Positions 10,042 through 45,037 are shown, numbered from the stretch's first letter. The stretch: 64,000 nt of DNA from Oscillospiraceae bacterium (GCA_015063695.1 SVTQ01000010.1:609-64608); one strand, 5' to 3'. Notes: a model not told the origin generated them from the letters alone. Translations and numbers: made by a program.

Positions 10042-10812
10042 ATGAAAAAAGAAGTAAGACGCGCTATTATCGCAGGCAACTGGAAGATGAACATGACTCC
10101 CTCTGCCGCAAAAGAAGCTATTGGAAAGACTGCAGAGCTCACAAAGGATATGAACGGCTGCGACGTTATCCTCTGCGTTCCTTTCGTTGACATCCCTGCT
10201 GCTGTTGAAGCTGCAAAGGGCACAAACGTTAAGATCGGTGCACAGAACGTTCACTTCGAAAAGAAGGGTGCTTTCACAGGCGAGATCGCAGGTGACATGC
10301 TCGTTGAATGCGGCATCGAATACGTTATTATCGGCCACAGCGAAAGAAGACAGTATTTCGGCGAAACAGACAAGACTGTTAACCTCAGAACAAAGGCAGC
10401 TCTCGAAGCAGGTCTCAAGGTTATCCTCTGCCTCGGCGAAGTTCTTGAAGAAAGAGAAGCAGGCATAACGTCCGAGATCGTTTCCATGCAGACAAAGCTT
10501 GACCTTGCAGGTCTCTCCGCTGAAGACATGAAGAACGTTATCATCGCATACGAACCCGTTTGGGCTATCGGTACAGGTCTCACTGCTACTCCCGAACAGG
10601 CTGAAGAAGTTTGCGCTATCATCAGAAACGTTATTGCAGGTCTTTACAGTGAAGAAGTTGCTGAAGGCGTTACAATTCAGTACGGCGGAAGCATGAACGA
10701 AGGCAACGCAGCTGCTCTTCTCTCCAAGGTAAACATTGACGGCGGTCTTATCGGCGGCGCATCTCTCGTTCCCGAAAAGTTCGTTCAGATCGTTGAAGCT
10801 GCTCAGGCGTAA
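10042..10812 (+). CDS. tpiA: Triosephosphate isomerase
   Basis: AGNWKMN, IIGHSERR, AYEPVWAIGTG, GGASL motifs. Confidence 0.95.
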   Translation: MKKEVRRAIIAGNWKMNMTPSAAKEAIGKTAELTKDMNGCDVILCVPFVDIPAAVEAAKGTNVKIGAQNVHFEKKGAFTGEIAGDMLVECGIEYVIIGHSERRQYFGETDKTVNLRTKAALEAGLKVILCLGEVLEEREAGITSEIVSMQTKLDLAGLSAEDMKNVIIAYEPVWAIGTGLTATPEQAEEVCAIIRNVIAGLYSEEVAEGVTIQYGGSMNEGNAAALLSKVNIDGGLIGGASLVPEKFVQIVEAAQA

Positions 10813-15510: not shown

Positions 15511-17457
15511 ATGTCAATAAAAAAAAGAGTTGGCCTGACCCTTATATCTTTTGTTTTCATCTTTGTTTTTCTCCTTTCACCTCTCGCCTATGCGGCGGGC
15601 AGTGAAACGGAAGGAAAATGCGGTCCATCCCTTACGTGGAATTACGATGCCGCTTCCGGCTCGCTTACTATTTCCGGCGAGGGGCCCATGTATGACTACG
15701 CAAATTTTTCCATTACGGTGGATTGCGCTCCATACAGCGTATACAGAGCAAAGATCAAATCTGTTGTAATTGAAGAAGGCTGTACTAAGATAGGCACCTA
15801 TGCCTTCTCCGGACTTACGGCTCTTACTCTCGTAAAGTTTCCCGAAAACTCTCTGAAAGAAATCGGTGCTTATGCTTTCAACTACTGCACAGAGCTCACA
15901 AGAATGATAATACCCGACAGCGTTACACTTTTAGGTGAGTCTGCATTTACTACCTGTCAGAAGCTTAAAATGATCCGCTTCGGTACAGGAATTACGTCTC
16001 TCCCCACAGGAATATGCCGTAAGGCTTCGGAGCTTACAGATGTTTTCCTTACGGAAAATATCAAGTACATCGGGAACGCTGCATTTTACGAATGCAAGAA
16101 GCTTGTAAACATTGATATTTCTTCTGTGGAAGTTTTTGAAGCAAATGCGTTTTTCAGCTGCACTTCTCTCAAAAGTGTCCGCTTCGGAGATAATATCAAG
16201 ACAATAGGCTCAAACTCTTTCTATTCCTGCAGCGCGCTTTCCGAAATTATTTTTGACGGAACGCCTACTGCAATTGCCTCCGCCTTCTGCTACGGCTCTC
16301 CTTGGTACAATTCCCATGACTATGGCATGTATACCATTTGCAACGGCGAAATTCTTATGTGCCGTACTCCTTATTCGGCAAGCGAGATAGTAGTCCCCGA
16401 AGGTGTTAAGATGATAGCCGACAACGCATTTGCCAACAATGCTTCCATAACAAAGGTCGTTCTGCCCGAAAGTCTTGAGGTTATAGGCTCCATGGCTTTC
16501 TCAAGAGCAGACTCCCTGACCTCCATAATCATTCCCGACAACGTAAAAGAAATACGCAAAAACGCCCTCGGTTACAAAACGCAAGGATCTTCAGATTCCA
16601 TTATCAACCCGAACTTTGTGATAACGAGCAGAGGAAAGGGCGTCGCTTATGCTTATGCAACACAAAACGGCATAAATTATAACTGTCTCCATGAATACGA
16701 AATCGCGGTTCAGTCCGAAAACTGTACCGAAGCTATATACAGTCTTGAAAAATGTATTTACTGCGATATCGTTATCGAAAAGACTGCTCTTCCCGTAAAA
16801 GAAAGCCACGATTTTACCGAAACTGTAACAACTCCCGATTGCGAAAACGGCGGATACACCCTTTACAGCTGTAAAAACTGCAATTTCAGCTTTAAAGATG
16901 CCGAAACATCAGCAAAGGGTCATTCTTCAACGGAAATTTGGGAGATCGTTGCCGAGCCCGAATGTGAAGAATACGGAAAGATAGCCCTTCTCTGCAGTGA
17001 CTGCGGCGATATCATTTCCGAAAAGCTTATAGAAAAAAACGGCCATTCGGAATCCGGCGCTCTCCGCACTCTCGCCGCAGAAAGCTGTACCGAAGCGGGA
17101 CTTTACGAAAAGTATTGCACAACTTGCGATGCGACTCTTGAAACCGTAACCGTTCCCGCGGTGGGTCACACCCCTGCAGGCGACTATGAGACCGTAATTC
17201 CCTTTGAAACGGAAAACGCAGGATGCGAAATGATCCGTTGCAAGACCTGCGGTATTGCGATCTCCGTTCGTTGGTTTGTGTACGACGGCGATGAAAAAGT
17301 AATAATTGACAAGAGCGAAGCAAGAAATATCTGCCTTGCAGGTATGGCGGAAGCTTTCGAGGGAACTTATGAAGTTTCCGTTTCAAGCTACGATTTCAAC
17401 TTTGACGGAATATTAAGTGCAAAGGACAAACTCACCGTCAAGCTTATGACCGAGTAA
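15511..17457 (+). CDS. Secreted BspA-type leucine-rich-repeat protein with Cys3-His repeat modules and a degenerate dockerin-like end
   Basis: Signal peptide (..LAYAAG). About 12 repeats of IPxSVxxIGxxAFxxCxxL (LRR_5 type). Four to five ~40-aa modules of C-x5-10-C-x2-C...H. One DxNxDGxIxxxD loop (DFNFDGILSAKD). Confidence 0.8.
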   Translation: MSIKKRVGLTLISFVFIFVFLLSPLAYAAGSETEGKCGPSLTWNYDAASGSLTISGEGPMYDYANFSITVDCAPYSVYRAKIKSVVIEEGCTKIGTYAFSGLTALTLVKFPENSLKEIGAYAFNYCTELTRMIIPDSVTLLGESAFTTCQKLKMIRFGTGITSLPTGICRKASELTDVFLTENIKYIGNAAFYECKKLVNIDISSVEVFEANAFFSCTSLKSVRFGDNIKTIGSNSFYSCSALSEIIFDGTPTAIASAFCYGSPWYNSHDYGMYTICNGEILMCRTPYSASEIVVPEGVKMIADNAFANNASITKVVLPESLEVIGSMAFSRADSLTSIIIPDNVKEIRKNALGYKTQGSSDSIINPNFVITSRGKGVAYAYATQNGINYNCLHEYEIAVQSENCTEAIYSLEKCIYCDIVIEKTALPVKESHDFTETVTTPDCENGGYTLYSCKNCNFSFKDAETSAKGHSSTEIWEIVAEPECEEYGKIALLCSDCGDIISEKLIEKNGHSESGALRTLAAESCTEAGLYEKYCTTCDATLETVTVPAVGHTPAGDYETVIPFETENAGCEMIRCKTCGIAISVRWFVYDGDEKVIIDKSEARNICLAGMAEAFEGTYEVSVSSYDFNFDGILSAKDKLTVKLMTE

Positions 17458-17474
17458 AGAAAGAGGTTAAAAAC

Positions 17475-19397
17475 ATGAAAAGATTAATATGTTTTCTTTT
17501 GGCTTTGACAATTACCCTCACTGTAACTCCTGTTTTCGGAGCTACTGTTTATAAATATTACTGCGAAGACGGCATTACCGCTAAGGTTGACGCGACAGCT
17601 AAGACCCTCACCCTCTCAGGAGAAGGTGATATGATGGACTACGCCGCGGACAACAGACCTCCGTGGTATGAAAGAAAATCCATATACACAAAGGTAATTA
17701 TCGAAAACGGCATTACCTCCATCGGCGACTATGCCTTCACCGATAACCTTGTGCTTGTTTCGGCAGATATCCCCGAATCCGTAACAAAAGTCGGAGACTA
17801 TGCTTTCCAGAAGTGTATCAAACTCACTGATATGCATTTTTCCGATAACGTAAAAGAGATCGGCATCTATGCTTTGGCCGATTGTAACGCACTGAAGAGA
17901 GTAACTCTCCCCAAGGTACTCCCCGAAATTCCTCAGGCGTTGTTCAGATGCAGTTATTATATTGAAAGCATCGTAATGCCCGAGGACTGTCCCTCTATCG
18001 GTGCCAGCGCATTCATGAGCTGCTCATACCTCAAAAATATAACTCTGCCCGCAAATCTCAGATCCATCGGAAACTATGCTTTCAACGGATGTAACGCTCT
18101 CGCTTCCGTTACGATACCGAACGGTACCGAGTCCATCGGTGACTTTGCTTTTTACAGTCTTTCAAAGCTCAGCGAGATAAACATTCCAAGCTCCGTAAAC
18201 TATATAGGTGAGGATGCTTTCTGCGGCACTCCTTGGTACAATGCTCTCTCAAACGGATTTAATCTCATTAACGGAATTGCCATCACATATAAAGGAAGTG
18301 CAACTACAAAAACCCTTAAAATTCCCGAAGGTGCCGTAACCGTTGCCCCCGGAATTTGCGGAAGCGCAATCTACGCAACGGAAGTTATAATTCCCGACTC
18401 TGTAAAATCTATCAGTCAATATGCCTTCTACGGTCTTTCATCTCTCTATTCAGTAACTATTCCCGATAATGTGGAAACTATAGGTGACTATGCTTTAGGT
18501 TATTACGCATCTTCGTTAGGTTCTCCCACTCCGATCTATCCCTTCACCATTTATTCAAGCAATCCTGTCGCAAAGGAATATGCCGAAAACAATCAGTTTG
18601 ATTTCGTATGTCTCCACAAGGAATACTCCTTATCAAACTATCCCGACTGCACCGTAGGCGGCACTGCTGACAAAATCTGCCTCTGTTGCGGTGAAATTAT
18701 AGGAACAGAAGACATATCCAAAGGAACTCATAGCTATAAAACAAAGATTTTCGGTGCAACTTGTACCGAAAACGGATTCATAAAGAGCTCATGTACAGTT
18801 TGCGGATATGAAAGGACTACCGTTACCGAGCCTGCAACAGGCCACACCGCAAACGGAAGCTTCAAAATTCAGAACTCCACGTGTGCAGAAAGCGGCTGTA
18901 TCTATAAGCTCTGTGATATCTGCGGCGAAAGCTTTGATGAAGTGAAAATAGAAAAGCTTCCACACACGCCTTCCGAAAAGAAGACTGTGGTAACGGCTCC
19001 CACTTGCATTGAAGAGGGTGAGTACTGCGTTCTCTGCAAAGACTGCGGTGAAGTCCTTGAAAAAGGAACTATCCCTGCACATGGACACACAAAAAGCTCA
19101 GAATTTACAGTTCTTAATGATTCCGACTATTTTGAAGATATCAAAGGACTTTATATAAGAGAGTGCACTAATTGTCACATAGCTCTGGACTATGGAGAAT
19201 TCTACAAGGGTGATTTGAACAATGATGAGGAAATTAATTCCCGTGATATTATAATTATTAAAAAGATTCTTGCAGGCGATATTTCCTATGATGAAGAAAA
19301 GCTAATATTACTTGAATTTCTGGGCGACATGAACAACGATGGGGAAATCACATCGCGAGACAATATAGCACTGAAGAAAATCGTCAGAAACGGCTGA
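17475..19397 (+). CDS. Secreted BspA-type LRR protein with Cys3-His repeat modules and a type I dockerin
   Basis: Signal peptide. LRR_5-type repeats. Five Cys3-His modules. C-terminal duplicated Ca-binding loops GDLNNDEEINSRD and GDMNNDGEITSRD (dockerin). Confidence 0.85.
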   Translation: MKRLICFLLALTITLTVTPVFGATVYKYYCEDGITAKVDATAKTLTLSGEGDMMDYAADNRPPWYERKSIYTKVIIENGITSIGDYAFTDNLVLVSADIPESVTKVGDYAFQKCIKLTDMHFSDNVKEIGIYALADCNALKRVTLPKVLPEIPQALFRCSYYIESIVMPEDCPSIGASAFMSCSYLKNITLPANLRSIGNYAFNGCNALASVTIPNGTESIGDFAFYSLSKLSEINIPSSVNYIGEDAFCGTPWYNALSNGFNLINGIAITYKGSATTKTLKIPEGAVTVAPGICGSAIYATEVIIPDSVKSISQYAFYGLSSLYSVTIPDNVETIGDYALGYYASSLGSPTPIYPFTIYSSNPVAKEYAENNQFDFVCLHKEYSLSNYPDCTVGGTADKICLCCGEIIGTEDISKGTHSYKTKIFGATCTENGFIKSSCTVCGYERTTVTEPATGHTANGSFKIQNSTCAESGCIYKLCDICGESFDEVKIEKLPHTPSEKKTVVTAPTCIEEGEYCVLCKDCGEVLEKGTIPAHGHTKSSEFTVLNDSDYFEDIKGLYIRECTNCHIALDYGEFYKGDLNNDEEINSRDIIIIKKILAGDISYDEEKLILLEFLGDMNNDGEITSRDNIALKKIVRNG

Positions 19398-23010: not shown

Positions 23011-23066
23011 GAACCCCTTACTAAAGAGAACCCCAAGCCGTCTTACGACAGCTTGAGGACCCCTTG
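23011..23066 (+). repeat. REP-like element, solo middle module (M3)
   Basis: Reverse complement AGGGGTCCTCAAGCTGTCGTAAGACGGCTTGGGGTTCTCTTTAGTAAGGGGTT aligns with the insert of copy C (30503..30553: AGGGGTCCTCAAGCTATCTCAGATAGCTTGGGGTTCTCGTTTGTTGGGGTT). Confidence 0.65.
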
Positions 23067-23111: not shown

Positions 23112-24308
23112 TTAAAGATTGTATTCTTCAGCAAGCTTTTTGAAAGCAGGAAGAGCGCGTTTTATCATGTCAGTCGAAACGCAGTAGGAAATACGAACGT
23201 AACCGCTGCAACCGAAGGAATCGGAAGGAACGAGAAGAAGCTCGTACTTTTTAGCTCTTTCACAAAAAGCGGAAGCATCCTCCTCGGGAGATCTCATAAA
23301 GAGATAGAAGGCTCCGTCGGGATGAACACAGCTGAATCCGTATTCGGTAAGAGAATTATAGAGCAGGTCACGGTTTTCGCGGTAAACCCCAATATCCGCT
23401 GTTTTGCCGAGACACTCGGCAACAACCCTCTGCATCATGGAAGGAGCACAAACGAAGCCGAGGGCTCTGCCTGCCCCGCAGATCGCAGCGTATATCTCTC
23501 TGTTATCGGGCATATTTCTGCCGATGGCAATATAACCGATACGCTCACCGGGAAGAGAGAGAGACTTACTGAAGGAATAGCACACAACAGAGGCATCGTA
23601 GCAATTGATAAGATAAGGAACCTCTGTGCTGTCGTCGTAAACAAGCTCTCTGTAAGGCTCGTCGGCAATAAGATATATGATATGACCGTACTCTTTGCTC
23701 TTTGCTTTTAAAAGGGCGCAAAGCTTTTCTATACAGTCGGGAGTGAGAACGACACCCGTGGGATTATTGGGGGTATTGATAATTACAGCCTTTGTTTTTT
23801 CTGAAAGAGTTTTTTCAAGGGCATCAAAGTCAATTCTGAAGCCTTCGGTGTCGGCAGGCACTACTGCAAGAGTTGCTCCCGCGTTTTCCGCAAAAACTCT
23901 GTACTCGGGGAAAAAGGGGGCGATAGCTACGACCTCGTCTCCCTCGCAAACGATGGCATTAAGAGTAACCGTAAGAGATGCCGCCGCGCCGCAGGTCATA
24001 TAGATATCATCCTTTGTAACGTCAGCACCGAAGCGTTTTTTAATATCCTCGGAAATGGCAATTCTGACCTTTTCGTCACCCTGAGCGGACGTGTAACCGT
24101 GAAGAGCTACGGGGCCCATGTTCTCCATAAGGCTCTTTATTGTGCCGTCAACGATCTCGGGAGCAGGTACGCTGGGATTTCCGAGGCTGAAATCGAAAAT
24201 ATTTTCTCTGCCTATCTCTTTCGCTCTGTTGTTTCCGTATTCAAATATCTCTCGGATAACGGAACGGACCGTTCCGAGAGCAACCATTTTCTTATTGATG
24301 TTTGCCAT
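23112..24308 (-). CDS. Class I pyridoxal-phosphate aminotransferase (aspartate/aromatic type)
   Basis: PLP-lysine motif SFSKSLSLPGERIGY, NPTG motif (NTPNNPTGVV). About 400 aa. Last gene of the iorAB-paaK-ACT string (46-nt gap from the ACT gene). Confidence 0.88.
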   Translation of the reverse strand: MANINKKMVALGTVRSVIREIFEYGNNRAKEIGRENIFDFSLGNPSVPAPEIVDGTIKSLMENMGPVALHGYTSAQGDEKVRIAISEDIKKRFGADVTKDDIYMTCGAAASLTVTLNAIVCEGDEVVAIAPFFPEYRVFAENAGATLAVVPADTEGFRIDFDALEKTLSEKTKAVIINTPNNPTGVVLTPDCIEKLCALLKAKSKEYGHIIYLIADEPYRELVYDDSTEVPYLINCYDASVVCYSFSKSLSLPGERIGYIAIGRNMPDNREIYAAICGAGRALGFVCAPSMMQRVVAECLGKTADIGVYRENRDLLYNSLTEYGFSCVHPDGAFYLFMRSPEEDASAFCERAKKYELLLVPSDSFGCSGYVRISYCVSTDMIKRALPAFKKLAEEYNL

Positions 24309-24354
24309 AAATTCTCCATATACGGGTGAAGAGGGAAAATCTCCCTCTCCTCCG

Positions 24355-24783
24355 TCAATTTTTTATCGTTTCCTCGTCAAGAAGCTCAATTCCTGCATCT
24401 GTCAGGACCTTTTCCGCCTTTTCGGAATCGTCTGTTCTCATTACGGTGAAAGCCTTTTCGGTTCTTGTTGTAACGAGAGCATACATATATTCGATGTTTA
24501 CGCCGTTTGCCTCAAGAACGCTGAGGGCATGGGCAAGTCCGCCGGGAACGTCGGGAACTGCAAAAGCAGTAACTTCTCTGATACTCGCGGTGTGGCCTGC
24601 TTCGCGAAGAACTTCAACCGCTTCCTCGGGACGGTCAGCGATGATACGGACTATACCGTAGTCGCTGGTATCTGCAACACACATGGTACGAAGGTCGATA
24701 CCTGCCGCTGCAATTACGTCGGTGATCTCGTGGAGAGTACCTCTTTTATTTTCACAAAATACGGATAACTGTTTAATTCCCAT
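24355..24783 (-). CDS. Tandem ACT-domain protein
   Basis: Two ~65-aa ACT-like halves (LSVFCENKRGTLHEIT..., FAVPDVPGGLAHALS...). This protein type commonly accompanies paaK-like ligases. Confidence 0.75.
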   Translation of the reverse strand: MGIKQLSVFCENKRGTLHEITDVIAAAGIDLRTMCVADTSDYGIVRIIADRPEEAVEVLREAGHTASIREVTAFAVPDVPGGLAHALSVLEANGVNIEYMYALVTTRTEKAFTVMRTDDSEKAEKVLTDAGIELLDEETIKN

Positions 24784-24834
24784 ATCATTTTCTCCTAAAA
24801 ATTATTTCAATGGTTGTTGCGATAAAACTGTTTA

Positions 24835-26148
24835 TCAGTCATGCAGCTTTCTCTTGTCTACTATTCTTACAGCCTTGCCTTCGCTTCTTGCGATAGTCTT
24901 AGGAGCAACAAGGTGAACTGCAGGGCCGATACCCAGCATACTTCTGAGGGCATCACGCAAAGATTTTTCCTTTGCCGCGATGGTCTTTACGGAGTCGTCA
25001 AACTGCTCGGGGGGAAGCTCCACGTATACGTCGAAGGTGTCCGAATTGTTCACGCGTGACAGCTCTATCTGATAGTTGGGAGAGAAGCCTTCCTTAAGAA
25101 GCACCGCTTCTATCTGTGAGGGGAATACGTTTACGCCTCTTATGATCATCATATCGTCGCTTCTGCCCATGGGCTTTGCCATGCGGATGAAGGTTCTTCC
25201 GCAGGAGCACTTTTCGCGGGAGAGAACGCAGATGTCACGGGTACGGTAACGAAGCATGGGAAAAGCTTCTTTGTCAAGACATGTAAATACAAGCTCGCCC
25301 TTTGTTCCTTCGGGAAGAACTTCTCCGGTTTCGGGATTGATTATCTCAGCAAGAAAGTGGTCCTCGTTTATGTGCATACCACCCTGCTCTTCACACTCAA
25401 AGGAAACGCCGGGACCGGAAATTTCCGTAAGTCCGTAAATATCGTATGCCTTGATGCCGAGAGTTTCTTCGATATTTTTTCTGATCTCTGCAGTCCAAGG
25501 CTCTGCGCCGAAGATACCTGCCTTGAGAGGAATAGTGTCGGGAGTATATCCCATTTCCTTAAGGCTCTCGCCGAGGTATGCGGCATAAGAGGGAGTACAG
25601 CAAAGAACTGTGGCTTTAAGGTCAGTCATAAACTGGATCTGTCTTTCTGTATTACCCGAAGACATGGGAAGTGTAAGGCAACCAACCTTATGGGAGCCGC
25701 CGTTGAGACCGGGACCGCCCGTAAACAGACCGTAACCGTAGCTTACCTGAACAACGTCACTCTTATCTGCACCTGCCGCAACAAGAGCTCTTGCGCAGCA
25801 GTCTTCCCAAAGGTCGATATCCTGCTGTGTGTAATATGCGATAACTCTCTTGCCCGTTGTGCCCGAGGTGGACTGAATACGAACACAGTCTTCAAGGGGC
25901 TTTGCAAGCATACCGTAAGGATAATTATCACGAAGATCGCTCTTTTCGATAAAAGGAAGCTTGTGAAGATCCTCTATACCCTTTATGTCATCGGGGGTAA
26001 CGCCCTTCGCCTCCATTTTAGCTCTGTAATAGGGAACGTTATCCCATACATGCTTTACCTGTTTTACCAGCTTTTCCGACTGAAGCTTTTTGATCTCTTC
26101 AACGGGCATAGTTTCAAATTCAGGCTGATAATACTTTTTGTTTTCCAT
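24835..26148 (-). CDS. paaK: Phenylacetate--CoA ligase family (AMP-forming)
   Basis: STSGTTGKRV adenylation motif, YGLTE, C-terminal subdomain typical of PaaK. About 437 aa. Confidence 0.88.
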   Translation of the reverse strand: MENKKYYQPEFETMPVEEIKKLQSEKLVKQVKHVWDNVPYYRAKMEAKGVTPDDIKGIEDLHKLPFIEKSDLRDNYPYGMLAKPLEDCVRIQSTSGTTGKRVIAYYTQQDIDLWEDCCARALVAAGADKSDVVQVSYGYGLFTGGPGLNGGSHKVGCLTLPMSSGNTERQIQFMTDLKATVLCCTPSYAAYLGESLKEMGYTPDTIPLKAGIFGAEPWTAEIRKNIEETLGIKAYDIYGLTEISGPGVSFECEEQGGMHINEDHFLAEIINPETGEVLPEGTKGELVFTCLDKEAFPMLRYRTRDICVLSREKCSCGRTFIRMAKPMGRSDDMMIIRGVNVFPSQIEAVLLKEGFSPNYQIELSRVNNSDTFDVYVELPPEQFDDSVKTIAAKEKSLRDALRSMLGIGPAVHLVAPKTIARSEGKAVRIVDKRKLHD

Positions 26149-26193
26149 TAAATAACCTTCTTCCGTGTTGGAATAAAATATAATATTTTAACT

Positions 26194-26763
26194 TTAGTTT
26201 CTACCTAAAGCAAAAGCCTTTTTGTTCATTTCAACAAATTTCGGCGCCACTGATTTTTCAATAGCGGCGATCCATTTTTCCTCGGGGATGTCAAGATACT
26301 TTGAAAGTCTTCCCATGAGAACGATATTTACAGCCTTTGAAGAGCCTGCTTCAAGAGCGGGAGTGAGAGCGTCGATGGCATCAACCGAGACACCCTTTTC
26401 GGAAAGACCTTCGAGAATACCGTGGGGATATTCTGCGGCTCCCGTGATTACGGGCATAGGGTCTATCTCCTGAGAATTCACGATAATCTTTCCGCCTTCC
26501 TTAAGACAGTCCGCATAACGAGCCGCTTCAAGCTTTTCAAAGGAAACGATAAAGTCTGCCTCGCCCTTGTCGATTATGGGAGAATATACTTTTTCACCTG
26601 CGCGAACGTAAGTCACAACGCTTCCTCCGCGCTGGCTCATACCGTGAACCTCGGAAACCTTTACGTCATAGCCCTCGTCAACAAGAAGTCTGCCAAGGAG
26701 CTTACTTGCGAGAAGAGAGCCCTGACCGCCGACACCTACTATCATTATATCAGCACTTTTCAT
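26194..26763 (-). CDS. iorB: Indolepyruvate:ferredoxin oxidoreductase, beta subunit
   Basis: IVGVGGQGSLLAS nucleotide-fold start. About 190 aa. Start overlaps the iorA stop. Confidence 0.88.
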   Translation of the reverse strand: MKSADIMIVGVGGQGSLLASKLLGRLLVDEGYDVKVSEVHGMSQRGGSVVTYVRAGEKVYSPIIDKGEADFIVSFEKLEAARYADCLKEGGKIIVNSQEIDPMPVITGAAEYPHGILEGLSEKGVSVDAIDALTPALEAGSSKAVNIVLMGRLSKYLDIPEEKWIAAIEKSVAPKFVEMNKKAFALGRN

Positions 26764-28502
26764 TATTCTTCACCTCCGACAATGGCTTTGAAGGGACAGA
26801 GCTGCTTGCACAGACCGCATCCCGTACAGAGAGTTGCATCAATAAACGCTTTGCCGTCCTTCATACTGATGGCAGGACAGCCTATCTTCATGCACGCCTT
26901 ACAGGAACGGCACTTGTCAGTATCAATGGTGAGGGCGGGAGCCGCCTTTACGTACTTGAGAAGAGCGCAGGGGCGTCTTGAAATAATTACGGAGGGTTCG
27001 TTTGCGGCAACCTCTTCACGGATGACCGCTTCCGTTTCCTTGAGGTCGTAGGGGTCAACGACTCTCACGCGGTTTATACCGAGAGCGCGGCAAAGAGCCT
27101 CAAGATCGATCTTGCCTGCAGGGTCGCCCTTGATGTTATATCCCGTTGTGGGATTATGCTGGTGGCCTGTCATGCCTGTGATGGAGTTGTCAACTATAAT
27201 AACGGTGGAATTCGTACCGTTGTAAGCGATATTTGCAAGGCCCGTCATACCTGAGTGCATAAAGGTGGAGTCACCGATAACGCAGACAGTCTTGTTTTCG
27301 CTCTTTTCGCCGAGAGCCTTGTTGAAGCCGTGAATACCCGAAACGGATGCGCCCATACAAAGCACGCTGTCGAGAGCACCGAGGGGAGCGGCAGAACCGA
27401 GAGTATAGCAACCTATATCGCCGAGAGCCGTGAGCTTATTCTTTGAAAGGATATAGAACAGTCCGCGGTGAGGACATCCTGCACACATAACGGGAGGACG
27501 GACGGGTATTGCTTCCTCGCTCTTTGTAAACTTCTTTTCGTCAAGACCGAAAGCCTTCGCGATAAGTCCCTGAGAAAATTCTCCGCAGATGGGAAGGATA
27601 TTCTTTCCGTCAACATCGATGCCCAGTGCCTTACAGTGGTTTTCGATAACGGGGTCAAGCTCTTCGATAACTACAACCCTTTCAACCTTTTCCGCAAAGT
27701 CCTTAATAATATCTACGGGAAGGGGATTTACAAGACCGAGCTTAAGCACGGAAACTCTGTCGCCGAAAACTTCCTTTACGTAGTCGTAGGAAGTACCTGC
27801 GGTGATGATGCCAAGCTTTTTGTCCTCTGCCCATTCAACGCGGTTGAGGGGAGAGGTCTCGGCGAGAGCCGTAAGCTTTTCGCATCTCTCTTCAACGAAG
27901 GGATGGCGGCGGATAGCATTTGCAGGAGCCATTATGTATTTCTGAGGAGCTTTTACGTATTCTTTTGTTTCGATGGCTTTAGGCTCACATGCTTCGACGA
28001 TACCCTGAGAGTGAGCAATTCTTGTGCACATACGGAGAATTACGGGAGTGTCGTATTCTTCGGAAAGCTCAAAAGCGATCTTTGTAAATTCCTTTGCCTC
28101 GAAAGAATCGGAGGGCTCAAGCATGGGAACCTTTGATGCTATGGCATAGTGACGGGAGTCCTGCTCGTTCTGAGAGGAGTGCATGCCGGGGTCGTCGGCA
28201 ACGCAGACAACAAGACCGCCGTTAACTCCCGTATAGGAGAGGGTAAAGAGAGGATCAGCCGCCACGTTAAGTCCTACGTGCTTCATGCAGCAAGCGCTTC
28301 TCGCTCCTGCAAGGGATGCACCGAAAGCAACCTCAAGGGCAACCTTTTCGTTGGGAGCCCATTCGGAGTAGATTTCATCATATTTTGCGGCAAACTCCGT
28401 AATTTCAGTGGAGGGAGTGCCGGGATAGCTTGAAACTACAGCACAGCCTGCTTCATAAAGACCGCGGGCAACTGCTTCGTTTCCTAACATAAGTCTTTTC
28501 AT
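26763..28502 (-). CDS. iorA: Indolepyruvate:ferredoxin oxidoreductase, alpha subunit
   Basis: N-terminal GNEAVARG..SYPGTPSTE, TPP-binding GDSTFMHSG, two C-terminal CxxCxxCxxxCP ferredoxin motifs. Confidence 0.9.
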   Translation of the reverse strand: MKRLMLGNEAVARGLYEAGCAVVSSYPGTPSTEITEFAAKYDEIYSEWAPNEKVALEVAFGASLAGARSACCMKHVGLNVAADPLFTLSYTGVNGGLVVCVADDPGMHSSQNEQDSRHYAIASKVPMLEPSDSFEAKEFTKIAFELSEEYDTPVILRMCTRIAHSQGIVEACEPKAIETKEYVKAPQKYIMAPANAIRRHPFVEERCEKLTALAETSPLNRVEWAEDKKLGIITAGTSYDYVKEVFGDRVSVLKLGLVNPLPVDIIKDFAEKVERVVVIEELDPVIENHCKALGIDVDGKNILPICGEFSQGLIAKAFGLDEKKFTKSEEAIPVRPPVMCAGCPHRGLFYILSKNKLTALGDIGCYTLGSAAPLGALDSVLCMGASVSGIHGFNKALGEKSENKTVCVIGDSTFMHSGMTGLANIAYNGTNSTVIIVDNSITGMTGHQHNPTTGYNIKGDPAGKIDLEALCRALGINRVRVVDPYDLKETEAVIREEVAANEPSVIISRRPCALLKYVKAAPALTIDTDKCRSCKACMKIGCPAISMKDGKAFIDATLCTGCGLCKQLCPFKAIVGGEE

Positions 28503-28636
28503 TGAGGATCTCCGTTTTATATATACAAGTGTATGAGATTTTTAAGATATTTTATATTATAATACAAACCAAGTTATAATTCAATATAAAATTTATAATA
28601 CAAGAAGAAAATTTGTATAAAAAGCCACAAGACAAG

Positions 28637-28662
28637 CATCGGGTACCGTTTGGCACCCGATG
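28637..28662 (-). terminator. Terminator of the symporter gene
   Basis: On the minus strand: CAUCGGGUGCC-AAAC-GGUACCCGAUG, followed by a U-rich tract. The single imperfect pair is G-U on the minus strand but A-C on the plus strand. Confidence 0.7.
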
Positions 28663-28678
28663 CGGATATTCCACGAAA

Positions 28679-30268
28679 TTATTTTTCATCAAGAGAGCTT
28701 CTTACGGGAACCGTTATTTCCTTTTCGTAACAAGCGAACATTTCATCGGTGTTTTCGGGCTTCAGCTTCTGTGTCAAAAGACTGACGACGGGAACGATAA
28801 CAAGACCGCCTACCATGGCAAATACGCCTGAGTAGAGAGAGTTTTTAAATACGAAACCGAGCACTCCGCCGTCAAAGGCGAGCCATTTCATGGATACGGC
28901 AAGCTGAACGAGCATAAGTCCGACACCCCATACGAAGGAAGTCCAGACCGCAGGACGGGTCACTTTTTTCCAGTACAGACCGTAGAGGAACGGAGCAAGG
29001 AACGCGCCTGCAAGTGCGCCCCAGGAAACACCCATCATCTGAGCAATGAATACAACTCCCGACCATACGGAATCCTTGAGAATTGCGATCGCCGCAGAGA
29101 GAACGATGAAAAATACTATAAATGCGCGAAGGATGAAAAGCTTCTTTTTCTCGGAGACTTCTTTCCTTGAAGCGGGTACTATAACGTCAAGGGTAAGAGT
29201 GGATGCCGAGGTGAGAACGAGAGAGGAAAGGGTGGACATGGATGCAGCCAGAACCAGAACTATCACCACAGCTACGATAACGGGAGAAAGGGTTGAGAGC
29301 ATCTTGGGGATTATGGCATCAAAGCCGCCGATGGCAAGTCTTTCTTCTTCCGTCATAAACAGTCTGCCAAAGCCGCCGAGGAAGTAACAGCCGCCTGCAA
29401 CAACTATAGCAAAGAGAGTGGAAATTAGAGTTCCTTTACGAATCGCCGCTTCATTTGTAATGGAGTAGAACTTGCCCACCATCTGAGGAAGTCCCCATGT
29501 GCCGAGTGATGTGAGAAGTACAACGAAAATAAGGAATACAGGGTCGGGTCCGAAGAAGGATGTATACTGCCATCCTCCGTTTGAGCCTTCCGCAAGTGCG
29601 GTAACAGAGCCCATAAGTCCGCCGTTTTCACCCAGCACCGCAAAAATTACGGCTACAATTCCCACAAGCATGATAATGCCCTGAATGAAATCGTTTATTG
29701 CCGTCGCCATGTAGCCGCCGAATACGACGTAAATACCCGTAAGGATCGCCATTGCCGCTATACATACCCAGTAAGGAATTTCAAAAGCTATACCGAAAAG
29801 GCTTGAAAGTCCGTTGTAAAGGGATGCAGTGTAAGGAATGAGGAATACGAATACGATAACGGATGCCGCAATCTTGAGTGCCTTTGAACCGTATCTCTTT
29901 TCAAAAAAGTCGGGCATGGTCTTTGAGTCAAGATGCTGTGTCATAACTCTCGTTCTTCTGCCGAGAATATTCCATGCAAGAAGTGAGCCGATAAAGGCGT
30001 TGCCGAGACCTATCCACGTTGAGGCAAGACCGAAGTTCCAACCGAACTGACCTGCGTAGCCTACAAAAATTACAGCTGAAAAGTATGACGTGCCGAAAGC
30101 AAAAGCTGTAAGCCATGGGCCGACGGAACGACCGCCTAAAACGAAGCCGTTAACGTCGGTCGAATGACGTCTGCAATAAAGACCTACGCCTATCATAAGT
30201 GCAAAAAAACAAATAATAAGTACGGATGTGAGTATCTGAGCAGTAGTCATATCATTTTCTCCTTTCAA
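28679..30268 (-). CDS. Sodium:solute symporter family transporter
   Basis: About 13 TM segments. SSS-type N-terminus (GGRSVGPWLTAFAFGTSYFSAV). Confidence 0.85.
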   Translation of the reverse strand: MKGENDMTTAQILTSVLIICFFALMIGVGLYCRRHSTDVNGFVLGGRSVGPWLTAFAFGTSYFSAVIFVGYAGQFGWNFGLASTWIGLGNAFIGSLLAWNILGRRTRVMTQHLDSKTMPDFFEKRYGSKALKIAASVIVFVFLIPYTASLYNGLSSLFGIAFEIPYWVCIAAMAILTGIYVVFGGYMATAINDFIQGIIMLVGIVAVIFAVLGENGGLMGSVTALAEGSNGGWQYTSFFGPDPVFLIFVVLLTSLGTWGLPQMVGKFYSITNEAAIRKGTLISTLFAIVVAGGCYFLGGFGRLFMTEEERLAIGGFDAIIPKMLSTLSPVIVAVVIVLVLAASMSTLSSLVLTSASTLTLDVIVPASRKEVSEKKKLFILRAFIVFFIVLSAAIAILKDSVWSGVVFIAQMMGVSWGALAGAFLAPFLYGLYWKKVTRPAVWTSFVWGVGLMLVQLAVSMKWLAFDGGVLGFVFKNSLYSGVFAMVGGLVIVPVVSLLTQKLKPENTDEMFACYEKEITVPVRSSLDEK

Positions 30269-30278
30269 CTGCTTTTAA

Positions 30279-30335
30279 GGGGAAACTTTCTGTAGCAAGT
30301 TTCCCCTTATACCCCTTCAAAGACTTTTGAAAAGG
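30279..30335 (+). repeat. REP-like element copy B (M1+M2)
   Basis: GGGGAAACTT-TCTGTAGC-AAGTTTCCCC hairpin, TTATA, CCCCTTCAAAGACTTTTGAAAAGG. Lies 10 nt upstream of the symporter start, so within its leader. Confidence 0.7.
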
Positions 30336-30484
30336 TATAAGAATAAACATTGTATTTTTTATTAAACTTTACGGCTCTTTGATTATCTTCTGTAAACCGA
30401 TAGTTTACAAAGAGCCTATTTATACTTTAATTGGGTAATAAGTTTTTAGTACATTCTCGACCAACTTGAGAAAATACCCTTAAA

Positions 30485-30579
30485 CCCGTTCAAAAGTTTT
30501 GTAGGGGTCCTCAAGCTATCTCAGATAGCTTGGGGTTCTCGTTTGTTGGGGTTTGGGGGACTTTTCTAAAAGTCCCCCC
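30485..30579 (-). repeat. REP-like element copy C (M2-M3-M1, inverted, full length)
   Basis: CCCGTTCAAAAGTTTTGTAGGGG, plus a ~45-nt middle module with a CAAGCTATC/GATAGCTTG hairpin, plus GGGGGACTTTTCTAAAAGTCCCCCC. Starts 7 nt after the ligase stop codon. Confidence 0.8.
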
Positions 30580-30586
30580 ATATTCC

Positions 30587-32230
30587 TCATCCGCTGATCT
30601 GAGCTTCTACGAGGCTGCCGCCGCAGTAGAGCTCGCGAAGACGGGGCTTTTCGATTTTGCCGGTGGGATTACGGGGCACGCTTGCGAAGATAATTTTGCG
30701 AGGTCTCTTGTACTTGGGAAGGGAGAGACAGAATTCATTGATCTCATCTTCTGTGCAGTCCATACCTTCTTTGATTTCAATGATTGCAGCCGCAATTTCG
30801 CCGAGACGCTTGTCGGGAAGACCGATAACGGCAACGTCCTTAATTTTTTCGTGAGCGCGGAGATGGTCTTCGATCTGAACGGGATAAAGGTTTTCGCCTC
30901 CGCTGATGATAACGTCCTTCTTACGGTCAACGAGATAGATAAATCCGTCCTCGTCTTCCTTTGCCATGTCTCCCGTAAGAAGCCAGTCGCCGCGGATAAT
31001 TTCGCTTGTAGCCTCGGGATTTTTGTAATAGCACTTCATAACGCCGGGACCTCTTACTGCAAGCTCACCGACCTCGCCATTTATAACGGGCTTGCCCTTT
31101 TCGTCAACGATTGCAGTTTCCCAAAGGTGACCTGCCTTGCCGATAGCACCTACCTTGTCAATGTTTTCAACACCGAGGTGAACACAGCCGGGACCGATGG
31201 ACTCGGAAAGACCGTAGTTTGTATCGTAATCGTGACTTGGGAACACGCTCTTCCAACGCTTGATAAGAGACGGAGGAACGGGCTGAGCACCTACGTGCAT
31301 AAGACGCCACTGAGAGAGGCGAAAATCTTCAAGCTTAAGGTCTCCTCTGTCAATGGAATCGAGAATATCCTGAACCCACGGAACGAGAAGCCAGACGATG
31401 GTCGCCTTTTCTTCGGAAGCTGTCTGCAGTACCCACTCGGGCTTTACGCCACGGAGAAGAACCGCTTTTGACCCGGTAAGAAGAGAGCCGAACCAGTGCA
31501 TCTTTGCGCCCGTATGGTAAAGAGGAGGAATACAGAGGAAAACGTCGTCCTTTGTCTGGGAGTGATGATTTTGCTCCGTAAGACAGGAGGAAACAAGAGC
31601 CGCATGTCTGTGAAGAATAGCCTTGGGGAAACCTGTAGTGCCCGATGAGAAGTAAATTGCCGCATCGTCCTCATCCTTTATCTCAACGGGAGGAACGGTC
31701 GTGGAGCAATAATAGGTCATCTGAGCATAATTGTCAGCGAACCCCGGAGTTTTTTCTTTGTCACCGACGAAGAAGAAATCGTCAATAGCCGAAAGCTCAT
31801 CGTAGACAGTTTCAATTCTTTCAATAAATTCGGGACCGAACACAAGCATTCTCGCATCCGCAAGGTCGAGACAGTACTTAATTTCATCCGCGGAATATCT
31901 GTAATTCATGGGAACCGCAAGTGCGCCTGTTTTGAGAATACCGAAATAAATGGGAAGCCACTCAAGACAGTTCATAAGAAGAATAGCAACCTTGTCACCC
32001 TTCTTTATTCCTCTTGTGAAAAGAAGATTGGCAAATCTGTTTGCCTTAACGTCGAATTCCTTCCAGGTCATTTCGCGGCGGTACTTTTCGGACTCGCTCG
32101 CCGTGTCTATAAGATTGAATTCACGCCACGTAACGTTTTCTTCCGGCTGATTTTCGGGGTTGACCTCAACGATCGCCACGTCCGTGGGATAAATTTTTGC
32201 ATTTCTTTCAAGAAAATCTGTAATGGGCAT
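30587..32230 (-). CDS. Adenylate-forming acyl/aryl-CoA ligase (ANL superfamily)
   Basis: YFSSGTTGFPKA, WLLTGDMA, DRKKDVIISGGENLYP, terminal GKIEK lysine motif. RBS GGAGGG. Substrate not assignable from sequence. Confidence 0.85.
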   Translation of the reverse strand: MPITDFLERNAKIYPTDVAIVEVNPENQPEENVTWREFNLIDTASESEKYRREMTWKEFDVKANRFANLLFTRGIKKGDKVAILLMNCLEWLPIYFGILKTGALAVPMNYRYSADEIKYCLDLADARMLVFGPEFIERIETVYDELSAIDDFFFVGDKEKTPGFADNYAQMTYYCSTTVPPVEIKDEDDAAIYFSSGTTGFPKAILHRHAALVSSCLTEQNHHSQTKDDVFLCIPPLYHTGAKMHWFGSLLTGSKAVLLRGVKPEWVLQTASEEKATIVWLLVPWVQDILDSIDRGDLKLEDFRLSQWRLMHVGAQPVPPSLIKRWKSVFPSHDYDTNYGLSESIGPGCVHLGVENIDKVGAIGKAGHLWETAIVDEKGKPVINGEVGELAVRGPGVMKCYYKNPEATSEIIRGDWLLTGDMAKEDEDGFIYLVDRKKDVIISGGENLYPVQIEDHLRAHEKIKDVAVIGLPDKRLGEIAAAIIEIKEGMDCTEDEINEFCLSLPKYKRPRKIIFASVPRNPTGKIEKPRLRELYCGGSLVEAQISG

Positions 32231-32283: not shown

Positions 32284-32556
32284 AAAAACAAAATCCTCTG
32301 TACAAAAAGTACAGAGGACGAATATATCGCGGTACCACCTCAGTTTACGAACTTCTCACAAAGTCCGCCTCATCAGGCACATTCATGCCCTGCTGTTTTA
32401 CGGTCAGCTTCCGTCGCGGCTTTGGCACATTACGTGTGTTTACCGCGCAGCTTGCGGAATGTATTCGCTTTCCGACTCCGACTGCCTCGCATCAAACGGC
32501 AGCTTTCTGAACGGCTCATCGGGGAGCTACTTGTTTCCGGTCATCACTTTATAATC
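32284..32556 (-). promoter_or_regulatory. T-box riboswitch leader, predicted tyrosine (UAC) specifier
   Basis: Minus strand 5'->3': AGUGAUGA (GA/K-turn). Helix CGGAA/UUCCG. Specifier loop ACAAGUA...GAA-UAC-A (codon at 32461..32463). AG bulge UUCAGAAAG. Distal helix CUGCC/GGCAG. T-box sequence AACUGAGGUGGUACCGCGA (32328..32343). Terminator CCUCUGUAC-UUUUU-GUACAGAGG (32295..32317) plus U-run, mutually exclusive with GAGG/CCUC antiterminator pairing. Confidence 0.85.
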
Positions 32557-32576: not shown

Positions 32577-32605
32577 AGTGTAGCACAAAAGCACAAATTT
32601 GTCAA
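32577..32605 (-). promoter_or_regulatory. Sigma-A promoter of the T-box leader
   Basis: Minus strand TTGACA, 17 nt (AATTTGTGCTTTTGTGC), TACACT. About 20 nt upstream of the leader's GA motif. Confidence 0.65.
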
Positions 32606-35537: not shown

Positions 35538-35592
35538 CCCCGTTCAAAAAGTTTTGAAGGGGTTTGGGGGGACTTTTTCAAAAGTACCCCCC
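35538..35592 (-). repeat. REP-like element copy F (M2+M1, inverted)
   Basis: CCCCGTTCAAAAAGTTTTGAAGGGG, TTT, GGGGGGACTTTTTCAAAAGTACCCCCC. Confidence 0.8.
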
Positions 35593-43178: not shown

Positions 43179-43883
43179 ATGGAACAGATATATACAATAC
43201 CCATAAACGAGGCATTTGAAAACAGCGCGTCAGACCACTCGCTGGGCTGTCCCTTCTGTAATCTTCATAAGAAGTTCGAAGACGACGAGCTTTCCCTCAT
43301 CCTCGGCGCTTCCATGATGGAACCCGATGTGCGCATAAAGACAAACGAGCTGGGCTTTTGCAACCGTCACTATAAGAAAATGTTTTCTGCAGGCAAAAAA
43401 CTTCCCCTTGCTCTTATTCTTGAGAGCCATCTTGCAACAGTTTCCGAAAGCCTTACAATAAATAAGCTTCTTCCCGCCGCAAGCGGAAAAAACGCCGCAA
43501 AAACCTTCTCAAAGCTCTCCGAGACCTGCTATATCTGCGAGAGAATAGAAAGAAATTTCAACCACATGCTTAATAACGCCGTCGCTCTCTTCATGGCGGA
43601 CGTGGATTTCAGAAAGAAATGCGCCTCTCAGCCCTGCTTCTGCATAGAGCACTACGGTCAGTTTCTCGCCATGGCACAGCAAAAGCTGAAGGGCAAGGAT
43701 TTTGCCGCCCTTTATAAAACTGTTTTCCAGGTGGAAGAGAAGTACGTGAAGAAGGTTCAGGAAAACGTCTCCTTTTTCGTCAAAAAATTCGATTACCGCT
43801 ATGCGGACGAGCCTTGGGGTGATGCAAAGGATGCGGTCGAAAAGGCAATAATTTCCCTCACAGGCGAGCATCCCGAAGAATGA
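43179..43883 (+). CDS. Cys-rich hypothetical protein (DUF6062-like)
   Basis: CPFC...FCNRH and CYIC...FCIEH cysteine pairs. ATG 43179 follows GAGAGG. Family assignment is from memory of the pattern only. Confidence 0.5.
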   Translation: MEQIYTIPINEAFENSASDHSLGCPFCNLHKKFEDDELSLILGASMMEPDVRIKTNELGFCNRHYKKMFSAGKKLPLALILESHLATVSESLTINKLLPAASGKNAAKTFSKLSETCYICERIERNFNHMLNNAVALFMADVDFRKKCASQPCFCIEHYGQFLAMAQQKLKGKDFAALYKTVFQVEEKYVKKVQENVSFFVKKFDYRYADEPWGDAKDAVEKAIISLTGEHPEE

Positions 43884-43895
43884 TTTCAAAAGGTG

Positions 43896-43921
43896 TCCTC
43901 TCTTTCAGTTGGAAGAGAGGA
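43896..43921 (+). terminator. Terminator after the DUF6062-like gene
   Basis: TCCTCTCTT-TCAGTTGG-AAGAGAGGA, followed by TATTTTATTGTTTT. Confidence 0.7.
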
Positions 43922-44215
43922 TATTTTATTGTTTTGAAATGCCAATTTATGGTAATTGAGCATATAAATTTCCAATATTTACCTTATATTGACATTATAT
44001 ACCAATTTAAAGATTTTTTCAAGGGTAATAACAAAGGTTTTTCATTATTTACAACAGGCATCACTTCCTCGCAATTTTACAATCCGAAATACCAAAGGAA
44101 TATAAAACACATAAACAAGCGACATAAACTTTGCTCAGTATTTGCCAATATTTTTGCGTGTTATGTAATATACTTTTTCCACATGAAAAATAATAGAGTC
44201 AATCAGAGGAAAACT

Positions 44216-45004
44216 ATGAATTCAAATATTTTTAATATATATACTGATACCGCAGATCATCAGAACCTCGACAATAACGTACAATATAGATACCACGTAG
44301 AGCTTACTCCACGAAAAAGCTGTATTACTGCTAAAGAATTTGCTTCCTTTACAAAAAGCATCAAAGAATACGGAATTTTTGAACCTATAATCATTGATGA
44401 GACCGGAAACGTAATTGACGGTAACAAAAGGTATTATGCCGCCGTTTCCCTCGGCATGATATATCTGCCATGCATTACGGAAGGCGTACATTACATTCCT
44501 GCCTACAAATCAGTACTTGATACAATTACCGACCCCTCCCTTCATTTTTTCCAAAAAGCCTCGTCAATATTTGAATTATCGGATAAATATCTTATGACCC
44601 AAGAAAAAATTGCTATTTTGCTTGGAGTAAGCCAGTCATATGTAGCAAACAAAATGCGACTGCTTACATTTACAGAACAACAAATTAAGCTGATAATTGA
44701 AGGAGCTCTGACTGAAAGACACGCAAGAGCCTTACTTAGAATTAAAAACACTGATAAACGGACGGAAGCGATCCGCTACGCAGTCGAAAACGGCATGAAC
44801 GTTTCTTCTACAGAAAAATACATCGACAACATAATTGAAAATAGTTTTGACTTTGACATAATTAACAAACCCCAAGGGGTAAAAGCCGCATGTAAAGAAA
44901 TCGACAAATTTTCGAGCGCCGCCAAGGAAATGGGGGTATTTGTAAAAATCAATCGCGCCGAAGATACTCGATCAATCAACTACACAGTAAAGATCTACAA
45001 GTAA
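44216..45004 (+). CDS. Divergent ParB/Noc-like protein
   Basis: ParB N-domain (GIFEPIIIDETGNVIDGNKRYYAA), HTH (QEKIAILLGVSQSYVANKMRLL, LTERHARALL). Start at the ATG after AGAGGA. Upstream 43880..44215 is AT-rich noncoding. Confidence 0.75.
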   Translation: MNSNIFNIYTDTADHQNLDNNVQYRYHVELTPRKSCITAKEFASFTKSIKEYGIFEPIIIDETGNVIDGNKRYYAAVSLGMIYLPCITEGVHYIPAYKSVLDTITDPSLHFFQKASSIFELSDKYLMTQEKIAILLGVSQSYVANKMRLLTFTEQQIKLIIEGALTERHARALLRIKNTDKRTEAIRYAVENGMNVSSTEKYIDNIIENSFDFDIINKPQGVKAACKEIDKFSSAAKEMGVFVKINRAEDTRSINYTVKIYK

Positions 45005-45011
45005 CAAATAA

Positions 45012-45027
45012 TGTTTCACGTGAAACA
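45012..45027. promoter_or_regulatory. parS site 1
   Basis: TGTTTCACGTGAAACA, a perfect 16-bp palindrome matching the Firmicute parS consensus TGTTNCACGTGAAACA. Confidence 0.9.
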
Positions 45028-45037
45028 TTTAAATGTA

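Follow-up and report, generated by a model that had tools for sequence, protein, structure and literature searches.

Why would the gene for a coenzyme A (CoA) ligase lie behind an RNA leader that senses starvation for tyrosine? The question is raised by seven genes at positions 23112–32230 of a 64,000-nucleotide (nt) stretch of DNA from an Oscillospiraceae bacterium (GCA_015063695.1 SVTQ01000010.1:609-64608; hereafter the window, with coordinates counted from its start). In 5'-to-3' order these genes encode a FadD-like CoA ligase, an SSF symporter, the two subunits of indolepyruvate:ferredoxin oxidoreductase (IOR; iorA and iorB), a PaaK-type phenylacetate–CoA ligase, a tandem-ACT protein and a class I aminotransferase. 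An earlier reading of this DNA (the original prediction) had proposed that the string salvages aryl acetates into aromatic amino acids by reductive carboxylation, and our profile searches against Pfam and NCBIfam agree with it on the identity of the genes, their order and their common placement on the minus strand. That anaerobes turn aryl acetates into aromatic amino acids has been known since 1965, with the bacterial genes and their control remaining vague. From the leader, the genes and their relatives in other genomes, we consider it likely that the string serves as a salvage module for producing tyrosine (Tyr) and phenylalanine (Phe) from the aryl acetates 4-hydroxyphenylacetate and phenylacetate.

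The tyrosine T-box and the products of the gene string

A T-box raises expression of the genes downstream of it when its tRNA is uncharged. Scanning the whole window with Rfam returned a single family, the T-box RF00230, on the minus strand upstream of the ligase gene, with a score of 102.7 bits against a gathering score of 93 (E = 1.5e-21) and a match spanning the full length of the model (positions 1–219). Taking the specifier from the cmscan alignment together with an alignment with 34 related leaders, we read it as UAC, a Tyr codon, at 32463–32461, within the context GAA-UAC-A (32466–32460), that is, the GAA of the S-turn, the codon and then a purine. The Tyr T-box that had been predicted upstream of the ligase is thus present, above threshold and with the expected specifier. 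The antiterminator, GGUGGUACCGCG, carries the UGGU of the T-box bulge at 32337–32334, which we take to pair with the ACCA 3' end of tRNA-Tyr. The intrinsic terminator has a folding energy of −19.6 kcal/mol (z = −3.9) and shares sequence, through its 5' arm, with the 3' strand of the antiterminator helix; that helix, GAGG...CCUC with a UGGUACC bulge, folded only once the 3' arm of the terminator was left out. The two structures are predicted to be mutually exclusive, and by its sequence the leader is a transcriptional T-box of the usual kind, placed before an unusual gene.

The protein encoded directly behind this leader, 547 amino acids in length, matches Pfam AMP-binding with 240.9 bits and AMP-binding_C with 46.9 bits, and the core motifs of the ANL superfamily are readable in its translation (YFSSGTTGFPKA, YGLSE, LLTGD and PTGKI, the last with the A10 lysine), features that assign it to the class I CoA ligases of that superfamily. 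All 108 of its NCBIfam matches fell below their own cutoffs, the best being PRK06187 at 417.8 against 476, and we rejected an assignment as a long-chain fatty-acid–CoA ligase (PRK06187, FadD) because the score lies under the subfamily cutoff. Orthologues 69–96% identical occur across the Oscillospirales. The family is a tight one: among representatives clustered at 50% identity, we found one at 69%, a few sister clusters at 42–54% and then generic ANL and non-ribosomal peptide synthetase domains, and searches of homologues and solved structures turned up no characterised member of the family. Judged solely by its gene context and by the specifiers of its T-boxes, the most likely substrate of this ligase is 4-hydroxyphenylacetate.

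The remaining enzymes of the string are more readily placed. IorA scored 733 bits against a cutoff of 650.9 for TIGR03336, with thiamine pyrophosphate and 4Fe-4S domains present, and IorB scored 268.9 against 230 for NF005325, with a match to PF01558; as both lie above curated cutoffs, the two are assigned as the subunits of IOR. The second ligase (24835–26148) reached 522.1 bits for TIGR02155, under the equivalog cutoff of 646.3, contains AMP-binding_C_2 and matches the solved PaaK enzymes PDB 2y27 and 4r1l at 1e-121, which marks it as PaaK-type by sequence, yet not as the equivalog of the aerobic Paa pathway. The ACT pair matches PF19571 (113.7 bits) and PDB 2f06 (6e-26) and is probably an amino-acid-sensing partner of PaaK. 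The aminotransferase scored 559 bits against 376 for NF005305 and matches PDB 3ele at 1e-152.

Gene linkage and specifiers across 161 related loci

We collected related loci by using the ligase to search a set of genomes, one for each species, which gave more than 599 matches; the best 80 were used (69–87% identical), almost all of them from metagenome-assembled genomes of Oscillospirales from the rumen, hindgut, human gut and digesters. Adding two closer relatives by exact protein match gave a first set of 82 loci, and a second, independent scan with IorA as query contributed 79 new loci, for a total of 161 (individual loci are numbered with the prefix L). The ligase gene is followed by iorAB on the same strand in 37 of the 58 loci with enough downstream sequence, typically with gaps of 17–160 nt, and it adjoins iorAB in 41 of the 79 loci of the iorA-query set. 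Genes for PaaK and the ACT protein come after iorAB in 23 of the 82 first-set loci, and where a related locus carries paaK, ACT mostly follows it, usually by 11–58 nt; eight loci have ligase–iorAB without paaK within the span used for chaining genes, and in one of these (L077) paaK–ACT lies about 700 nt further on. An orthologue of the aminotransferase (54–73% identical) is found directly 3' of the ligase gene or iorB in L010, L029, L037, L090, L102 and L110, and the type seen in the window stands right after the ligase gene in L029 and L037 and after iorB in L010. The symporter gene adjoins the ligase gene in 33 of 82 loci (17 upstream, 16 downstream), often within the same Tyr T-box unit. 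In L090 all seven genes form one string, with gaps of 4–38 nt, behind a single Tyr T-box-like leader.

These data answer the earlier call for a check of whether the ligase co-occurs with iorAB and T-box leaders: the linkage is recurrent. The ligase, SSF symporter, iorAB, paaK–ACT and aminotransferase genes constitute a recurrent same-strand module. Clustering of all other open reading frames (ORFs) found no further conserved neighbour, with a greedy ORF caller that also took spurious antisense ORFs. Because the flanks vary from locus to locus, the module appears to move as a unit among genomic settings, as a mobile functional module.

A hidden Markov model built from the first leaders and run on all loci brought the number of T-boxes heading these units to 52, the window's own and 51 from related loci. 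We read each specifier in a fixed register, as the three bases after the GAA of the S-turn, with a single base between them and the closing helix. There were 37 UAC (Tyr) and 15 UUC (Phe) specifiers and no other codon. Rfam placed 13 of 15 submitted related leaders above threshold. The L090 leader, with a UAC specifier, scored 88.7 bits (E = 4.7e-20), just under the threshold, and clusters with the leader of the window; the first T-box of L076 was likewise not above threshold. Both were counted as T-boxes because they align with the rest of the leaders, and that of L090 also for its E value.

The specifier tracks the ligase that the unit encodes. Units with the FadD-like ligase and without paaK are all Tyr, in about 20 loci representing at least 14 T-box sequence clusters at 72% identity and including units of the ligase alone, ligase plus symporter, ligase–iorAB and ligase–iorAB–aminotransferase. 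Units with paaK and without the FadD-like ligase are all Phe, in four lineages (L076b, L099/L107, L111 and L158); the Phe T-box lies between iorB and paaK in L099, L107 and L111 and before iorAB–paaK–ACT in L158 and, as its second T-box, in L076. Counted by lineage, without full phylogenetic correction, Phe occurs in 4/4 paaK-only versus 0/14 ligase-only cases (Fisher p ~3e-4); the raw locus counts are 5/5 and 0/20. Leaders with different specifiers can be close relatives. The Phe leader of L076 (L076b) is a close copy of the Tyr leader of the same locus (L076a), the Phe leader of L111 falls into one cluster with those of L050, L057 and L064, which are Tyr, and the Tyr leader of L044 clusters with the Phe leaders of L030, L039 and L043. 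Related leaders therefore mix specifiers, which indicates that the specifier has switched several times, each way as the cargo predicts.

This pattern upholds the greater part of a division of labour that had been put forward for the two ligases: the FadD-like ligase goes with Tyr and PaaK with Phe. The share of indoleacetate assigned to PaaK gains nothing from it, and, with no Trp specifier among the 52 T-boxes, a branch leading from indoleacetate to Trp is without support. The same pattern bears on whether the FadD-like ligase might instead be a general aryl acetate ligase, acting on phenylacetate, 4-hydroxyphenylacetate and indoleacetate and overlapping PaaK, with the Tyr bias a matter of ancestry. 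Such breadth would suit the 7–8 loci that have ligase–iorAB without a nearby paaK, the presence of either specifier in two-ligase units and the fact that the T-box lineages are few and mutually related. We nevertheless think it doubtful, as Phe appears in all four independent cases in which the ligase was lost and paaK kept, and never in ligase-only units.

Several loci depart from the common arrangement. In L149, L157 and L159 (~4650–6000), a second PaaK paralogue, 47–49% identical to PaaK of the window, occupies the place of the ligase before iorA; this looks like a non-orthologous replacement and suggests that two differently built aryl acetate ligases supply IOR. In L047 (4418–4822), L049 (9445–9852) and L076 (9210–9629), the ligase leader is closely preceded by a gene for a PaaI-like hotdog thioesterase; the best NCBIfam match of this protein is hydroxyphenylacetyl-CoA thioesterase, at 64 bits, under the equivalog cutoff and over that of the hotdog domain. 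Metagenome-assembled genomes of Treponema/Spirochaetaceae (L118, L122, L124, L134, L135, L150 and L160) carry an iorA about 70% identical to that of the window, in L160 with a 65% identical ligase gene 1.8 kb away, suggesting that the module has passed from one phylum to another. In L085, a glycine riboswitch (10198–10289; 64.5 bits) that is seemingly unrelated follows closely downstream of the cluster.

The proposed salvage route, its rivals and the layout of the window

Since uncharged tRNA switches a T-box on, the genes that Tyr and Phe T-boxes control should increase the supply of these two amino acids, and the sole visible route by which a ligase, an IOR and an aminotransferase could do so is activation of aryl acetates, reductive carboxylation and transamination. 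These three enzymes co-occur in the window, and their association recurs among the 161 related loci. In the route we propose, uncharged tRNA-Tyr would bind the T-box through UAC and stabilise the antiterminator, and polymerase would read into the ligase gene and possibly that of the symporter. The symporter would bring in an aryl acetate with Na+, the FadD-like ligase would form 4-hydroxyphenylacetyl-CoA and PaaK would form phenylacetyl-CoA. IorAB, with reduced ferredoxin and CO2, would then carboxylate the thioester to the arylpyruvate, which the aminotransferase would convert to Tyr or Phe. The argument from T-box logic to an anabolic direction, made in the original prediction for the window, is strongly reinforced by the 52 Tyr/Phe T-boxes and the recurrent ligase–iorAB linkage.

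A first rival to the salvage route turns on the direction of IOR: IorAB would gain energy by oxidising the arylpyruvates of Tyr, Phe and Trp to arylacetyl-CoA, leaving the ligases to a side reaction or to reverse operation. IOR works catabolically in Pyrococcus and reportedly in Bacteroides thetaiotaomicron (PMC13285125), and the iorAB unit of the window has its own promoter and no T-box. However, 52 T-boxes, which induce under amino-acid scarcity, head units of this kind, and iorAB itself lies behind a T-box in L090, L076b and L158, from which we infer the anabolic direction. In addition, both ligases are AMP-forming, and no phosphotransacylase/kinase pair or ADP-forming ligase, which catabolic clusters have (PMC13285125), stood out among the conserved neighbours. 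We therefore regard catabolism as very improbable. The AMP-forming chemistry had originally been taken as irreversible; it is suggestive of the thioester direction and falls short of proof. An AMP-forming acetyl-CoA synthetase works in reverse in Syntrophus.

A second rival concerns the symporter. Its likely start is the ATG at 30250, 8 nt past a GGAG, and it matches PF00474 with 174.2 bits against a gathering score of 22.8, confirming the SSF family. It falls below the cutoffs for PutP (188 versus 515), PanF (151 versus 328), ActP (40 versus 750) and MctC; with PutP and PanF scoring higher than ActP, it sits closer to the PutP/PanF branch of the family than to the branch of ActP and the phenylacetate permeases. 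Most simply, the symporter is predicted to import the substrate of the ligase, with import of Tyr as a live alternative. Carried further, that alternative would make the T-box mainly the switch of a Tyr importer and the ligase a passenger with an unrelated substrate, in keeping with amino-acid transporters being common T-box targets (PMC2494555), with the symporter being nearest to PutP, a proline transporter, and with the added SNF-family transporter at the head of the L082 operon. Against this, a Tyr T-box precedes the ligase alone, without the symporter, in eight or more of the assessable loci (L012, L015, L017, L019, L028, L076a, L125 and L132), and the ligase is tied to iorAB and the aminotransferase far beyond chance synteny. 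We judge it unlikely that uptake of Tyr is the main function under T-box control.

The L082 transporter (8630–9979), a sodium-dependent protein of the SNF/NSS family, heads a ligase–symporter–iorAB–paaK–ACT operon that has no T-box and whose ligase is 88% identical to that of the window. In L053 (9184–9999) and L029 (18724–19575), an ORF of about 280 amino acids starting MYIDFHTH stands beside the symporter gene; it is amidohydrolase-like, with no NCBIfam match.

Several observations weigh against the salvage reading. In the window itself, iorAB–paaK–ACT–aminotransferase lies behind a terminator and has its own promoter, so that it may not respond to amino-acid supply. A T-box is present in only about 40% of the first-set loci with enough upstream sequence (31/78), and most of the closest relatives of the window (L002, L007 and L082–L089) have a plain conserved promoter and no T-box. 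Units with both ligases are divided between Tyr (7–8) and Phe (6–7), which fits the model and is no test of it. The symporter, being closer to PutP and PanF than to ActP, may carry Tyr itself. Finally, the nearest solved relatives of the FadD-like ligase (FadD13, FadD5 and feruloyl-, malonyl- and coumarate-CoA ligases) are about equally distant from it, so that sequence by itself does not single out aryl acetates as its substrates.

The conserved promoter of the relatives that lack a T-box has the form TACTCGACAAA-N17-TGnTATAAT and is followed by an AT-rich 'TATATTATA' leader; it lies upstream of the ligase gene in L002 (9870–10000), L007 (7640–7745), L003, L083, L086, L088, L089, L094 and L143. 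Scanning L002, L007, L082 and L083 for another riboswitch returned no Rfam family. In L047 (4880–4950), L049 (9930–9985) and L032 (1985–2040), a T-box-like terminator, CGTCCUCUGC...GCAGAGGACGUUUUU, stands at the end of a leader of about 70 nt that has neither Stem I nor a UGGN bulge.

The salvage reading can be widened into a general claim: that many gut and rumen Oscillospirales are conditional Tyr/Phe prototrophs by a two-ligase, riboswitch-wired salvage, with the ANL family a dedicated 4-hydroxyphenylacetate–CoA ligase, the SSF protein its importer and the specifier repeatedly retuned to its ligase. On this wider claim our confidence is evenly balanced.

The features of the window are collected in Table 1. 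The terminator behind the symporter gene (−24.3 kcal/mol, z = −7.2) runs from 28663 to 28636, in agreement with the one predicted at 28637–28662. The iorA promoter downstream of it sits among TTGTATTATAA repeats, of which the window holds six against 1.2 expected, with 4/6 at 28552–28603; we speculate that these motifs may be the operator of some regulator. Together with the conserved promoter of the relatives that lack a T-box, they suggest that a second, protein-based control may exist. From iorA to the aminotransferase gene the gaps are 0–51 nt, and iorB overlaps iorA by 1 nt.

The spacer between ligase and symporter genes contains a weak promoter-like site at 30410–30382 (9/12 matches). 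One of its hairpins (30503–30540) resembles the cluster-end hairpin at 23026–23064 and another (30555–30579) resembles 35567–35591, each having just one related copy in the 64-kb window. The repetitive extragenic palindromic (REP) elements previously proposed here are palindromic hairpins, for which that name, implying many dispersed copies of one consensus, is partly supported. As no spacer hairpin carries a minus-strand T-tail, read-through from the ligase into the symporter gene is possible, and because the same junction spans 4–48 nt in relatives, the 318-nt spacer is a recent, lineage-specific insertion. Of the three or more transcription units predicted for the string, two are well supported and the third, the symporter gene on its own, is uncertain.

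Table 1. Genes and control elements of the string in the window
Feature	Position	Strand	Basis or description
Sigma-70-type promoter of T-box leader, TTGACA-17-TGcTACACT	32577..32605	-	Consensus scan 10/12, extended TG
T-box leader	32311..32553	-	RF00230 full-model match
T-box intrinsic terminator	32293..32319	-	11-bp stem then T-run
FadD-like AMP-forming acyl-CoA ligase	30587..32230	-	Pfam AMP-binding and AMP-binding_C
Ligase–symporter spacer, 318 nt	30269..30586	-	Four hairpins, weak promoter-like site
SSF symporter	28679..30250	-	PF00474; ORF as called runs 28679–30268
Intrinsic terminator 3' of symporter	28636..28663	-	12-bp stem, 8 GC pairs, T-rich tail
iorA promoter, TTGAAT-17-TATAAT at 28584–28556	28552..28603	-	Consensus scan
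iorA, alpha subunit, indolepyruvate/arylpyruvate:ferredoxin oxidoreductase	26763..28502	-	TIGR03336
iorB, beta subunit	26194..26763	-	NF005325, PF01558
PaaK-type phenylacetate–CoA ligase	24835..26148	-	TIGR02155 (below cutoff), AMP-binding_C_2, PDB matches
Tandem-ACT protein	24355..24783	-	PF19571, PDB 2f06
Class I aminotransferase, predicted arylpyruvate aminotransferase	23112..24308	-	NF005305, PDB 3ele
Terminator-like hairpin closing the cluster	23031..23058	-	−26.9 kcal/mol, z = −6.3

In profile searches, the string is flanked on one side by genes for galactokinase, a CDP-alcohol phosphatidyltransferase, luxS and an MTA/SAH nucleosidase, and on the other by ung, a ThuA-like gene and a class II tRNA synthetase gene; these flanking genes have no relation to the seven-gene string. 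No shikimate or prephenate genes were found within the 64-kb window, whose 42–52-kb part holds parAB, noc, serS and adhesin-like genes. The grouping of genes for a ParB/Noc-like protein, ParA, ParB and serS at 43880–48304 suggests a place for the window close to the chromosomal origin. At 15511–19397 are the genes for two large BspA-type leucine-rich-repeat proteins, one with a dockerin domain that hints at a cellulosome-associated organism.

Implications and comparison with known systems

In gut bacteria, IOR clusters are usually taken for catabolic genes that yield phenylacetate and indoleacetate, and a starvation-sensing T-box is direct regulatory evidence for the reverse. The locus names candidates for the genes that such a pathway needs, namely a new ligase family, a transporter and a PaaK–ACT pair. 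If the salvage reading is true, genome-based predictions of Phe and Tyr auxotrophy in Clostridia would need revision, and the gut would see not only production but also consumption of phenylacetate and 4-hydroxyphenylacetate, the precursors of phenylacetylglutamine and p-cresol. The Tyr/Phe specifier pattern is in its own right a clean natural case of a T-box retuned to match its cargo.

A close functional parallel is the aryl-acid pathway of Methanococcus maripaludis, in which IOR has been shown genetically to be anabolic on aryl acids (PMC4162585, citing Porat 2004). Both would use an IorAB-type reductive step on activated aryl acetates followed by transamination. The M. maripaludis pathway is archaeal and without a T-box, and no FadD-like second ligase or SSF symporter has been described for it; its evidence is genetic, whereas that for the window is regulatory and comparative. 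Rumen bacteria make Phe from phenylacetate (Allison 1965, as cited in PMC7356843), and carboxylation of aryl acetates in the rumen was also reported by Stack et al. 1983 (as cited in bioRxiv 10.1101/2019.12.11.873224). The chemistry proposed for the window is the same as in this rumen carboxylation of phenylacetate and 4-hydroxyphenylacetate, and many of the related loci come from rumen or hindgut genomes. The rumen work was physiological, with genes unassigned, whereas the window locus offers candidate genes and a regulatory logic.

Among gene clusters, there is a close likeness in Bacteroides, for which a 2026 paper raises the possibility that IOR and an AMP-forming arylacetate ligase are anabolic (PMC13285125). 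That cluster also has iorAB beside a PaaK-type ligase, and the anabolic suspicion likewise arises from the AMP-forming chemistry. It differs in having no T-boxes, no second FadD-like ligase and no symporter, whereas the window has a starvation-sensing leader.

The RNA itself shares its architecture with the known Tyr and Phe T-boxes of tyrS, pheST, aromatic biosynthesis genes and transporters (RF00230; PMC2494555, PMC7583486), including tRNA sensing by a specifier codon followed by a purine and competition between terminator and antiterminator. A single-base switch between Tyr and Phe specifiers is known from Bacillus subtilis tyrS (PMC2494555, PMC7583486). What differs is the cargo, here an ANL CoA ligase, an SSF transporter and a 2-oxoacid:ferredoxin oxidoreductase; a 2008 survey of T-box targets (PMC2494555) has no CoA ligase, SSF transporter or ferredoxin oxidoreductase among them. 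Our search of the full-text literature found no paper linking T-boxes to IOR, PaaK or acyl-CoA ligases, with mention in Vitreschak 2008, Gutierrez-Preciado 2009, Porat 2004, RegPrecise or TBDB possible, and none that contains both 'T-box' and 'indolepyruvate', key subscription papers and T-box databases lying outside the search. Within that scope, the wiring is as undescribed as the original prediction took it to be. The pathway is old and the pairing of IOR with PaaK is known, whereas the T-box wiring, the second ligase family and the rule that links specifier to ligase appear to be new.

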